Virus record (IMG/VR): IMGVR_UViG_649989998_000001
Source: a virus
Taxonomy: Duplodnaviria; Heunggongvirae; Uroviricota; Caudoviricetes
Strand: one strand, 5' to 3'
DNA: 8,585 nucleotides
Shown: positions 2,789 through 3,098 of the stretch, piece after piece
Layout: every line of letters begins with the position of its first letter
How positions within the stretch are numbered: the first letter of the stretch is position 1
Notes under the pieces: generated by a model
Databases searched by the model: none
Seen by the model: only the letters and a program-made list of their open reading frames with translations
Told to the model about the DNA's origin: nothing
Made by a program: the position numbers and the translations under genes

Positions 2789-2862
2789 TGGAGCGACAGC
2801 GGGAATCGAACCCGCATCATCAGCTTGGAAGGCTGAGGTAATAGCCATTATACGATGCCCGC
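2789..2862 (-). tRNA. tRNA-Gly(UCC)-like, with a defective 3' acceptor strand (possible pseudogene)
   Basis: Reverse complement reads GCGGGCAUCGUAUAAUGGCUAUUACCUCAGCCUUCCAAGCUGAUGAUGCGGGUUCGAUUCCCGCUGUCGCUCCA, with anticodon loop CUUCCAA. D, anticodon and T arms are intact. The 3' acceptor strand is UGUCGC (6 nt) where pairing with 5' GCGGGCA requires UGCCCGC, so the stem has a G-G and a C-U mismatch and is one nucleotide short. Confidence 0.6.
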
Positions 2863-2865
2863 ATA

Positions 2866-2941
2866 TGGTGCCGACTACCGGAATCGAACTGGTGACCTAC
2901 TGATTACAAGTCAGTTGCTCTGCCTGCTGAGCTAAGTCGGC
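2866..2941 (-). tRNA. tRNA-Thr(UGU)
   Basis: Reverse complement GCCGACUUAGCUCAGCAGGCAGAGCAACUGACUUGUAAUCAGUAGGUCACCAGUUCGAUUCCGGUAGUCGGCACCA; 7-bp acceptor stem GCCGACU/AGUCGGC, anticodon stem ACUGA/UCAGU with loop CUUGUAA, T-loop UUCGAUU, encoded CCA. One A-C mismatch in the T-stem. Confidence 0.8.
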
Positions 2942-2943
2942 GC

Positions 2944-3020
2944 TGGCCCACCACCGAGGACTCGAACCTCGCACCGTCAACTTAGAAGGTTGATGCTCTA
3001 TCCGGATGAGCTAGTGGTGG
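2944..3020 (-). tRNA. tRNA-Arg(UCU), reads the rare AGA codon
   Basis: Reverse complement CCACCACUAGCUCAUCCGGAUAGAGCAUCAACCUUCUAAGUUGACGGUGCGAGGUUCGAGUCCUCGGUGGUGGGCCA; acceptor stem CCACCAC/GUGGUGG, anticodon stem UCAAC/GUUGA with loop CUUCUAA, T-loop UUCGAGU, encoded CCA. The 5' C start is unusual for chromosomal E. coli tRNAs. Confidence 0.8.
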
Positions 3021-3021
3021 T

Positions 3022-3098
3022 TGGTGGCCCTTGCTGGACTTGAACCAGCGACCTGGCGATTATGAGTCGCTCGCTCTGACCAACTGAGCTAAAGGGCC
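3022..3098 (-). tRNA. tRNA-Ile2 (anticodon CAU, lysidine-type, reads AUA); by anticodon alone it could be tRNA-Met
   Basis: Reverse complement GGCCCUUUAGCUCAGUUGGUCAGAGCGAGCGACUCAUAAUCGCCAGGUCGCUGGUUCAAGUCCAGCAAGGGCCACCA; acceptor stem GGCCCUU/AAGGGCC, anticodon loop CUCAUAA. The anticodon and T arms resemble ileX/ileY-type tRNA-Ile2 rather than elongator tRNA-Met, as recalled. Confidence 0.75.

Follow-up and report, generated by a model that had tools for sequence, protein, structure and literature searches.

Clusters of tRNA genes in the late region of lambdoid phages have been known since the first Stx-phage genomes. In Stx phages of the 933W/Sakai type (Stx2a_F349, AP012530), an ileZ-argN-argO cluster is found after Q and tR' and before the late genes, and in an Stx2a phage a primary transcription start site drives the tRNAs located between tR' and stx2AB (PMC7547250). 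Phage 21 carries a tRNA-Asn/tRNA-Thr21 pair (OL657228) in the interval from Q, pR', and tR' to a class II holin gene. In the set of papers searched, ileZ, argN, and argO jointly gave no match, and broader searches returned only generic remarks on Stx-phage tRNAs.

We analyzed an array of four tRNA genes in an 8,585-nucleotide stretch of viral DNA (IMG/VR record IMGVR_UViG_649989998_000001; "the window" denotes this whole stretch). Public E. coli, phage, and Shigella records already carry annotations of these four genes. The array is a familiar cassette of lambda-like phages, an ordinary chromosomal operon being ruled out, and its copy in the window is a leftover orphan in a remnant bounded by insertion sequences.

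The four genes and their distribution

Both ARAGORN and Rfam RF00005 called four tRNA genes on the minus strand at 2789-3098, Ile2-CAU, Arg-UCU, Thr-UGU, and Gly-UCC, with the anticodons given in the preliminary description. Their RF00005 scores of 70.5, 56.4, 69.8, and 49.7 bits, respectively (E-values, 3e-14 to 2e-8), all exceed the gathering threshold of 29 bits, and all four genes encode the CCA end. The spacers read from the sequence are 1 nt (3021, A), 2 nt (2943-2942, GC), and 3 nt (2865-2863, TAT), exactly as first reported. The accompanying claim of "much longer" chromosomal spacers was overstated, as those of the host thrU operon are 8 and 6 nt. A continuous 7-bp acceptor stem stacking on the T stem is present in Ile2, Arg, and Thr and absent from Gly.

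The first gene of the array (3022..3098, minus strand; ARAGORN, RF00005 70.5 bits) is an intact, CCA-encoding tRNA-Ile2 gene of the lysidine type with anticodon CAU. It matches Stx-phage ileZ at 74/77 positions (96%), ileY at 71/77, and metT/metU at 54/77, and its acceptor stem is that of ileY. Among the pairs of this stem are C4-G69 and C5-G68, which are TilS determinants; metT/metU have U4-A69 and A5-U68 instead. Because it is closer to ileY/ileZ than to metT/metU and has the ileY acceptor stem, we assign the CAU gene to Ile2 and not to Met; it is a homologue of ileZ. In the NCBI PGAP annotation of E. coli FDAARGOS_944, the identical gene is listed as tRNA-Ile.

Slot 2 (2944..3020, minus strand; ARAGORN, RF00005 56.4 bits) holds a tRNA-Arg gene with anticodon UCU and an argN-family body. 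The unusual first pair C1-G72 is found together with A20, C35, U36, and G73. Identity to Stx-phage argN, whose anticodon is UCG, is 64/77 (83%), compared to 58/77 for host argU, and this gene is an argN homologue. Only 10 of 5426 E. coli genomes contain a 100% identical copy (median, 3 copies per genome), and the Arg-UCU allele as a whole is confined to 16 of the 5426, with several copies in each. The commonest relatives have a "Lys-UUU" allele with C33 in this slot instead (53/129 loci).

The tRNA-Thr gene (anticodon UGU; 2866..2941, minus strand; ARAGORN, RF00005 69.8 bits) matches host thrU at 74/76 positions; only U16C and U20C differ, both in the D loop. Its anticodon arm is the unaltered host arm (ACUGA/UCAGU), with the CNG motif at 28-30/40-42 and the 5-bp stem kept. 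The C16/C20 allele is present in 29 of 112 arrays, each time alongside Arg-UCU, and 75 of the 112 carry the host gene exactly. Five arrays on three backgrounds have a Thr gene with G42U and U43C, unpaired; plain decay was our first reading of this allele, which is ambiguous in light of published work on resistant tRNAs (PMC12445682). Elsewhere among the relatives, the Gly gene of strain RMDEC332 has anticodon UAC, an acceptor deletion, and CCA changed to CAA, a change that looks like decay.

The preliminary description derived Thr and Gly from the host thrU-tyrU-glyT-thrT operon. They are indeed near-copies (74/76 for thrU and 73/75 for glyT), but this does not demonstrate a capture that lost tyrU. 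Matches to the host operon end 1 nt past thrU and 2 nt ahead of glyT, and a search around Thr and Gly for host-operon spacers, flanks, or a tyrU remnant found nothing else below E = 0.01. In Photobacterium, copies matching at 75/76 and 75/75 positions are direct neighbors 8 nt apart, with no Tyr gene intervening; by such matches, Thr and Gly tRNAs are almost invariant across gamma-proteobacteria. The host thrU-tyrU-glyT-thrT-tufB operon has the same Thr-then-Gly order, and the Gly gene of intact relatives equals glyT (75/75), whereas the window lacks tyrU, thrT, and spacer or flank homology, differs in promoter and context, and has a damaged Gly gene.

We found the array in 488 of 5426 E. coli genomes (9%), among phage late genes in every sampled case, as well as in at least 120 IMG/VR contigs and in Citrobacter, Enterobacter, and Shigella genomes. 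Its intact position is the antiterminator/holin interval, as in E. coli FDAARGOS_944 and CFSAN029787 and in phage PhiR47_1, with three different antiterminator types; relatives showing the full antiterminator-to-holin arrangement have 98% identical arrays. This recurrence in prophages and isolated temperate phages upholds the original view of a phage-type array. The Thr-Gly pair occurs alone at 23 loci, and the pair of Ile2 and slot 2 occurs alone in Stx and PPompW phages. Strain Sd1617 has a candidate additional Thr-Gly unit in tandem. On these comparisons the array is modular, an ileZ/argN-type pair joined to a thrU/glyT-type pair, each also found alone in other phages.

An IS-bounded remnant and a damaged Gly gene

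Pfam and IS annotation placed the array in a 3.7-kb lambdoid-prophage remnant of Shigella dysenteriae type 1, with IS1 and IS600 on either side; six chromosomes (4.3 to 4.46 Mb) contain exact matches, and published work assigns two of them to S. dysenteriae serotype 1 (PMC4445032, PMC7819885). What remains of the prophage is a late-control module (3307..4811, minus strand; Pfam, Rfam, PMC4825925) made up of a DUF1133/Q-like antiterminator gene (4137-4811, minus strand; Pfam), C4-type and isrK RNAs (3916-4117, minus strand; Rfam, 77.6 and 75.6 bits, respectively), and an ORF6N/AnrP-like gene (3307-3996, minus strand; Pfam). The remnant holds no lysis, structural, or other late genes, and the preliminary description overlooked that there are no late genes for the array to serve. 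The "Sel1 gene" that it described as adjacent is chromosomal ybeQ, which lies outside the phage unit with two IS1 copies in between.

A scan identified a σ70 promoter-like site, TTGCAG-17 nt-TATTAT (3108..3136, minus strand; TATTAT at 3113-3108), that stops 9 nt short of Ile2 on its 5' side. Seven arrays, including that of an Stx2a phage, have the two hexamers without any variation, while the upstream flanks are otherwise divergent. A second promoter-like match in Thr/Gly (2874-2847) was rejected, since its TATAAT is the D-loop sequence of glyT itself. After the ORF6N gene, sequence and alignments revealed a hairpin followed by a T-run, resembling the tR'/isrJ terminator (3187..3211, minus strand), that is weakened in the window, where GCGGT replaces GCGGG. 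A consensus terminator scan of 2550-3400 called none, the hairpins described here not fitting within its loop and stem limits; their description rests on alignment and folding.

Gly is followed by a conserved trailer predicted to form hairpins (2598..2788, minus strand; alignment, folding) with 95% mean column identity over 32 arrays; its intact version folds at z = -4.07. The trailer is cut by IS1 at 2597/2598, so that the terminator farther downstream, the holin gene, and the late genes are all gone. We detected no covariation signal in the trailer because the 32 sequences are 95% identical, and one variant disrupts a pair with no compensating change. When 2560-3330 was scanned against Rfam at sub-threshold scores, only tRNA look-alikes came up, and thus no family for the trailer.

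The Gly gene (anticodon UCC; 2789..2862, minus strand; RF00005 49.7 bits, glyT match 73/75) had been presented as a near-copy of glyT, a description that missed its damage: the 3' strand of the acceptor stem has lost 1 nt and carries a C>T change. ARAGORN made only a truncated 70-nt fit (2790-2859, anticodon at position 31) because this strand reads TG-TCGC where glyT has TGCCCGC. The Rfam score falls from 64.9 bits for intact glyT to 49.7 bits, and the predicted pairing probability of the acceptor stem falls from 0.996 to 0.008. The best cloverleaf requires a bulged G5 and a G4-U pair, at -13.5 kcal/mol; for comparison, the intact glyT cloverleaf is at -23.3 and the misfold at -23.4 kcal/mol. 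The lesion is thus predicted to abolish the cloverleaf, and the gene is probably nonfunctional. In most arrays Gly equals glyT exactly (40, 18, and 11 arrays in the three commonest classes); of 112 arrays, this one alone has the defect, which is fixed in each of the six S. dysenteriae 1 assemblies examined. Automated annotation still calls this probable pseudo-tRNA tRNA-Gly.

Possible roles: codon supply, counterdefense, and domestication

The reading that we favor, and consider probable, is that of a tRNA cassette of lambdoid temperate phages that has its own constitutive σ70 promoter, carries four genes on one precursor, and serves codon supply, the copy in the window being a leftover. The promoter upstream of Ile2 would drive a single four-tRNA precursor. 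With CCA at the end of every gene and only 1 to 3 nt before the following one, RNase P cleavage alone would suffice to separate the tRNAs; following general E. coli tRNA processing, a cut at each 5' end would leave 1- to 3-nt 3' tails for exonucleolytic trimming. Given the position between the Q-type antiterminator/terminator and the holin gene, the cassette of an intact phage would be driven by its own promoter in the lysogen, and late in infection Q-modified read-through would transcribe it as well. The cassette would supply tRNAs for AUA, AGA/AGG, ACA, and GGA/GGG, which are rare in the host. In the window, Ile2, Arg, and Thr are intact and could still be expressed.

Enrichment of AUA and AGA had been expected from the outset. 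In a comparison of 42 K-12 genes with two carrier prophages, rather than of whole genomes, AUA, AGA, ACA, and GGA were enriched 2- to 8-fold in the prophages (odds ratios, 2 to 8; p, 1e-2 to 1e-19). By phage/host enrichment, AGG, AGA, AUA, ACA, and GGA rank 1st, 2nd, 4th, 5th, and 7th of 61 codons, and the chance of all four primary codons falling within the top seven is 35/521,855 (~7e-5). The expectation was therefore correct for carriers but did not set them apart: Lambda_2E9, a lambdoid phage without tRNA genes and our single control, has the same enrichment of AUA, AGA, ACA, and GGA, so codon demand does not separate carriers from noncarriers, and codon bias by itself fails to explain which lambdoid phages carry the array. 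AAA, the codon of the slot-2 Lys-UUU allele, is unenriched (odds ratio, ~1), and this allele is left unexplained by codon supply. With these reservations, codon supply is a plausible role for the cassette.

It is also conceivable, though doubtful, that the phage tRNAs replace host tRNAs cut by P2 Old and PARIS AriB, both antiphage Toprim tRNA nucleases, the alleles being resistant to cleavage. P2 Old excludes lambdoid phages and kills by cutting the host thrU tRNA, tRNA-Thr(UGU); the tRNA-Thr(UGU) of phage 21 protects against it, while an extra host tRNA-ThrU protects little or not at all (PMC12445682). PARIS AriB, the targets of which are tRNA-Lys(UUU), Thr(UGU), and Asn(GUU), cuts at U36AAUC|A41 and reads D-loop U16, and U16C significantly impairs cleavage of tRNA-Lys (PMC12409363). 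U16C is one of only two differences between the window Thr and thrU, and it resembles this recently reported change that blunts AriB, in a finding that is otherwise ordinary; however, the effect was demonstrated on tRNA-Lys and not on tRNA-Thr, and the AriB site U36AAUCA41 is unchanged in the window. With C28UG30/C40AG42 and the full 5-bp stem also kept, as in thrU, the window Thr has neither of the anti-Old features, an altered CNG motif and a shortened anticodon stem.

The wider family makes a better case. The G42U and U43C changes in the five arrays on three backgrounds eliminate the 3' CNG motif and leave a shorter anticodon stem, the two reported factors of Old resistance. The common slot-2 Lys-UUU allele, which codon demand fails to explain, has G39U40U41 where the AriB site would be, and codon bias is alike in carriers and in a lambdoid phage without tRNA genes. 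Against this, Thr is host-identical in 75/112 arrays and Gly equals glyT in most, the window has the Arg-UCU and not the Lys allele in slot 2, and our literature search found no tRNA nuclease reported to act against Ile2, Arg-UCU, or Gly-UCC. Counterdefense thus has support in the wider family and, through U16C, weak support in the window.

We regard it as unlikely, if worth stating, that the tRNAs between Q and holin form an allelic series shaped by P2/P4 Toprim nucleases. Such a series would comprise host-like Thr, U16C/U20C Thr, G42U/U43C Thr, the divergent Thr21, and a Lys-UUU without an AriB site. The window Thr would then be partly AriB resistant and not simply a neutral thrU copy, and the slot-2 body would be a scaffold on which the anticodon (UCG, UCU, or UUU) is swapped to match the attacked host tRNA.

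Domestication, with Shigella selection keeping Ile2, Arg-UCU, and Thr-UGU for its own AT-rich acquired genes, such as virulence genes, appears improbable. The promoter-like site upstream of Ile2 is intact, and the three tRNA genes are intact and identical to those of an E. coli prophage (0 differences in 230 nt), while the surrounding 2.4 kb differs by 1.5%; some 3.6 differences would be expected over 230 nt, and the Poisson probability of none is ~0.03. In a clonal lineage such conservation weighs little, and it can be taken as a weak sign of constraint at most. The Arg-UCU allele is multicopy in the 16 E. coli genomes that have it, and Shigella flexneri and another small-genome strain have three arrays each, but multiple copies may merely reflect piled-up lambdoid prophage remnants. 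One of the four genes, Gly, has already decayed, and its lesion is fixed.

An ordinary Enterobacteriaceae chromosomal tRNA operon, or a local rearrangement of thrU-tyrU-glyT-thrT, has next to no probability: Thr and Gly share 97% identity with thrU and glyT, and the spacer TAT can be read as the first base past thrU plus the last two before glyT (chance match, ~0.06), but this explanation is already contradicted by a distribution limited to 9% of E. coli genomes and the context of phage late genes in every sampled case, the host operon exists separately with no tyrU or spacer remnant at the array, and Ile2 and Arg are of phage families.

Comparison with described phage arrays

The array has close counterparts in coliphages PhiR47_1, vB_EcoM-606R7, and vB_EcoS-689R5 and in the prophages of FDAARGOS_944 and CFSAN029787, which share the gene order, the 1-, 2-, and 3-nt spacers, and 93 to 98.6% identity across the array and flanks. 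In FDAARGOS_944 and CFSAN029787, the Ile2, Arg-UCU, and Thr genes are identical to those of the window. In contrast to the window, where Gly is damaged, the four-tRNA coliphage and prophage relatives have an intact Gly equal to glyT, and next to their arrays on the downstream side lie holin, lysis, and morphogenesis genes that are absent here. Most four-tRNA relatives combine slot-2 Lys-UUU with a host-identical Thr, whereas the window combines Arg-UCU with the C16/C20 Thr.

The ileZ-argN-argO cluster of Stx phages occupies the same position relative to Q/tR' and the late genes, has the same invariant promoter-like motif, TTGCA(A/G)-17-TATTAT, and likewise a 1-nt spacer from Ile to slot 2. Stx argN and the window Arg share the odd C1-G72 pair and differ in anticodon (UCG and UCU, respectively). 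The third Stx tRNA, argO (UCU), is unrelated in its body and is set off by a 13-nt spacer; there is no Thr-Gly pair, and the stx genes come next, where relatives of the window have the conserved trailer and a class II holin gene.

The tRNA pair of phage 21 lies in the same interval, and its Thr anticodon is likewise UGU. However, Thr21 has 26 differences from thrU, including C28U, G42A, and U43A in the anticodon stem, compared to 2 in the window Thr, both in the D loop; the partner of Thr is Asn and not Gly, and Ile2 and Arg are absent. The arrays of the virulent phages T4 and T5 are packed as tightly, and the same roles, codon supply and evasion of tRNA nucleases, have been proposed for them (PMC12409363, PMC12445682). 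Their tRNAs are at most 78 to 82% identical to those of the window, and these are lytic phages with 8 to 25 tRNA genes in another position and under other regulation. If the alleles described here are functional, temperate lambdoid phages would share a tRNA arms race with T5 and phage 21.

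A phage tRNA array with one broken gene

Both ARAGORN and the Rfam tRNA model (threshold, 29 bits, passed by all four genes) called the four minus-strand tRNA genes of the preliminary description: Ile2-CAU at 3022-3098 (70.5 bits), Arg-UCU at 2944-3020 (56.4 bits), Thr-UGU at 2866-2941 (69.8 bits), and Gly-UCC at 2790-2859 (49.7 bits). The last truly starts at 2862; ARAGORN drops three of its bases, owing to the defect in its acceptor stem. The minus-strand reading gives the 1-, 2-, and 3-nt spacers that had been claimed, namely, A (3021), GC (2943-2942), and TAT (2865-2863), and CCA is encoded at the 3' end of all four genes. 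Under general E. coli tRNA processing, RNase P would cut the four tRNAs apart, and 1 to 3 nt would then be trimmed from their 3' ends. The earlier view of a phage-type array was right in kind, and there is little new in it: elements of this type are known, and this one lies in a decayed remnant and has one broken gene.

We compared the window tRNAs with K-12 genes and one Stx2a phage. Ile2 matched Stx-phage ileZ at 74 of 77 positions and ileY at 71 of 77, but elongator metT/U at only 54 of 77; it has the ileY acceptor stem, including the C4-G69 and C5-G68 pairs, and an identical gene is named tRNA-Ile by PGAP. Arg is closer to Stx-phage argN (64/77) than to host argU (58/77) and has in common with argN an unusual C1-G72 pair, although the anticodon of argN is UCG rather than UCU. 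Thr departs from thrU only by U16C and U20C, both of them transitions in the D loop. Gly is glyT through position 66, beyond which its 3' acceptor strand reads TG-TCGC instead of TGCCCGC.

In relatives with 98% identical arrays, Gly is glyT exactly, and among 112 arrays from public genomes and viral contigs the window lesion was seen nowhere else; one array (locus L051) has the C>T change without the deletion, plausibly an intermediate toward the window lesion. All six chromosomes encoding the window's exact ORF6N protein carry the lesion, which is therefore not a sequencing error. Intact glyT scores 64.9 bits with the Rfam model, and thermodynamic folding lowers the acceptor pairing probability from 0.996 in intact glyT to 0.008 in the window gene, in which the model pairs the 5' acceptor strand with that of the T stem instead; the most stable cloverleaf, in which G5 is bulged, lies ~10 kcal/mol above this misfold. 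We predict that the window Gly gene is non-functional, on a folding model that leaves aside tertiary contacts and base modifications.

The Gly slot of E. coli RMDEC332 (L018, 692-762) has the anticodon UAC and is annotated tRNA-Val; it has a different 1-nt acceptor-stem deletion, and CAA replaces CCA. Here the same array gene decayed independently. In S. dysenteriae Sd1617 (L011 7056-7418; CP006736), a second tandem Thr-Gly unit follows 209 nt past the first; the Gly of the first unit has the window lesion, and that of the second is intact. Each of the other five S. dysenteriae 1 assemblies has one unit only. The additional unit may be ancestral, may have come from a subsequent recombination with a different array, or may be an artifact of assembly.

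Setting of the remnant

Pfam and Rfam annotation of the window placed phage DNA, including the trailer and the four tRNAs, at 2598-6283, between two tandem, directly abutting IS1 copies (about 1084-2597) and IS600 plus another IS3-family element (6284-8585). The phage segment contains an ORF6N gene (3307-3996, minus strand), C4-type and isrK RNAs (3916-4117, minus strand), a DUF1133/Q-like antiterminator gene (4137-4811, minus strand), YbcO (4688-4978), and DUF1367 (5185-5832). At 3916-4117, Rfam scores were 77.6 bits for C4 antisense RNA, 75.6 for isrK, and 52.2 for the c4-a1b1 target site. These RNAs lie between the antiterminator and ORF6N genes, and the Shigella remnant matches the arrangement of antQ-isrK-orf45-anrP, the toxic antitermination module of Salmonella Gifsy-1 (PMC4825925).

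Six chromosomes encode the exact ORF6N protein, and all share this layout in the gltL-ybeQ interval (CP006736 is S. dysenteriae serotype 1 Sd1617 and CP061527 is HNCMB 20080; PMC4445032, PMC7819885); one of the six assemblies is identical to the window across the 501-nt array region. The IS-bracketed fragment stands where K-12 has the ybeR-rihA segment of the ybeQ-gltL interval. The "Sel1 gene" that had been described as adjoining the array is actually chromosomal ybeQ, past the two IS1 copies; its ATG ATA ATG start is present in the sequence but unconnected with the cassette.

Relatives, flanking signals, and origin

At a coverage of at least 80%, the 501-nt array region was found in 488 of 5,426 complete E. 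coli genomes and also in isolated temperate phages. All inspected arrays have an antiterminator gene on one side and a class II holin gene on the other, a position that is constant behind three antiterminator types. When the Thr-Gly junction was used as the search key, the pair turned up in Citrobacter braakii, Enterobacter hormaechei, Shigella flexneri, and another small E. coli-group genome (three copies in each of the last two), as well as in at least 120 IMG/VR contigs. The order Ile2-"Lys"(UUU)-Thr-Gly was seen at 53 of 129 loci and Ile2-Arg(UCU)-Thr-Gly, with the 1/2/3-nt spacers of the window, at 33; another 23 had Thr-Gly without other tRNAs, and a few had odd anticodon loops in the second position (slot 2). 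Stx and PPompW phages have the Ile2 plus slot-2 pair only. Since each pair stands alone in some loci, the four-gene array is two modules, of two genes each, fused together. Few E. coli genomes (16 of 5,426) have the Arg-UCU allele of the window, at a median of 3 copies each, and the Lys-type allele is found in 798.

Window Arg and Stx-phage argN have a common slot-2 body, and the anticodon loop varies by phage: CUUCUAA (Arg), CUUCGAA (argN), CCUUUAA ("Lys"), and CCUGUAA (examples at L002 6245-6321, L020 847-923, and L019 846-922). The "Lys" loop has C33 where U33 is near-universal.

A promoter-like TTGCAG-17 nt-TATTAT lies nine bases upstream of Ile2 (3136-3108, minus strand). Neither hexamer varies across seven arrays with otherwise divergent upstream flanks, including the Stx2a phage, where the two precede ileZ. 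Just upstream of this putative promoter is a Chi sequence (GCTGGTGG, minus strand; 3147-3154), kept in five of the seven flanks. In intact relatives, Gly is followed by a conserved trailer of ~290 nt, closed by a strong terminator (a hairpin and T-run) directly ahead of the holin gene; in the window, IS1 deletes the last 100 nt of the trailer and all beyond. The trailer (window 2598-2788, minus strand; intact copy, L016 19798-20089) is 95% conserved across 32 arrays, too alike for covariation, matches no Rfam family, and is predicted to fold as three long hairpins (z = -4.07).

Capture of Thr and Gly from the host operon with loss of tyrU had been proposed. The two are indeed near-copies of thrU and glyT, but neither donor nor route can be inferred. 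Similarity to the K-12 operon comprises the mature tRNAs, one base after thrU, and two before glyT; the TAT spacer is readable as those three host bases (chance about 0.06), a match that would fit a clean tyrU deletion. A Photobacterium chromosome carries Thr(UGU) and Gly(UCC) side by side, 8 nt apart, with no Tyr gene and in non-phage surroundings; the two match their E. coli counterparts at 75/76 and 75/75 positions, respectively.

Codon supply and counter-defense as proposed roles

As a role for the cassette, we rank codon supply first, above counter-defense, with which it is compatible. When annotated genes of phage PhiR47_1 and the CFSAN029787 prophage were compared with 42 K-12 genes, AUA, AGA, ACA, and GGA were each 2 to 8 times commoner in the phage genes, ranking 4th, 2nd, 5th, and 7th, respectively, in enrichment among the 61 sense codons; AGG ranked 1st and CGG, read by argN-UCG, 3rd. 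The chance of such a match between tRNA codons and enrichment is about 7e-5. AAA, the codon of the commonest slot-2 allele, was not enriched in the same phage genes. Lambda_2E9 (L153, LR595860), a lambdoid phage without tRNA genes whose cargo includes sitABCD and other genes, shows AUA, AGA, ACA, and GGA bias equal to that of the carriers; by this control, codon demand is therefore common to all lambdoids and does not account for which of them carry the cassette.

Counter-defense against tRNA nucleases ranks second. P2-lambda interference is the work of P2 Old, which kills by cutting at paired CNG motifs to remove the anticodon arm from host tRNA-Thr(UGU); resistant phage tRNA-Thr genes, including that of phage 21, provide rescue (PMC12445682). 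The phage 21 gene sits, with tRNA-Asn, in the same Q-tR'-holin interval. However, the window Thr keeps the anticodon arm of thrU unchanged, 75 of 112 arrays have a Thr gene identical to that of the host, and supplying more host ThrU reportedly protects little against Old (PMC12445682). AriB of PARIS, whose substrates are tRNA-Lys(UUU), Thr(UGU), and Asn(GUU), cuts at U36AAUC|A41 and contacts U16, and its cleavage of tRNA-Lys is significantly impaired by U16C (PMC12409363). U16C and U20C are exactly the differences between the window Thr and thrU, making the U16C allele a modest experimental lead, although its effect is known from tRNA-Lys and the window tRNA is Thr. In the common slot-2 Lys allele, G39U40U41 replaces the AriB-cut U39C40A41; on the other hand, we found no reported tRNA nuclease that would account for Ile2, Arg-UCU, or Gly-UCC.

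The Old and AriB papers, both from 2025, change the picture for the wider tRNA-array family. Five related arrays (L018 766-841, L045, L115, L129, and L143) carry uncompensated G42U and U43C changes in Thr, on three allele backgrounds; left unpaired, these destroy one CNG motif and shorten the anticodon stem, the two factors to which the P2 Old resistance of phage tRNA-Thr is attributed (PMC12445682).
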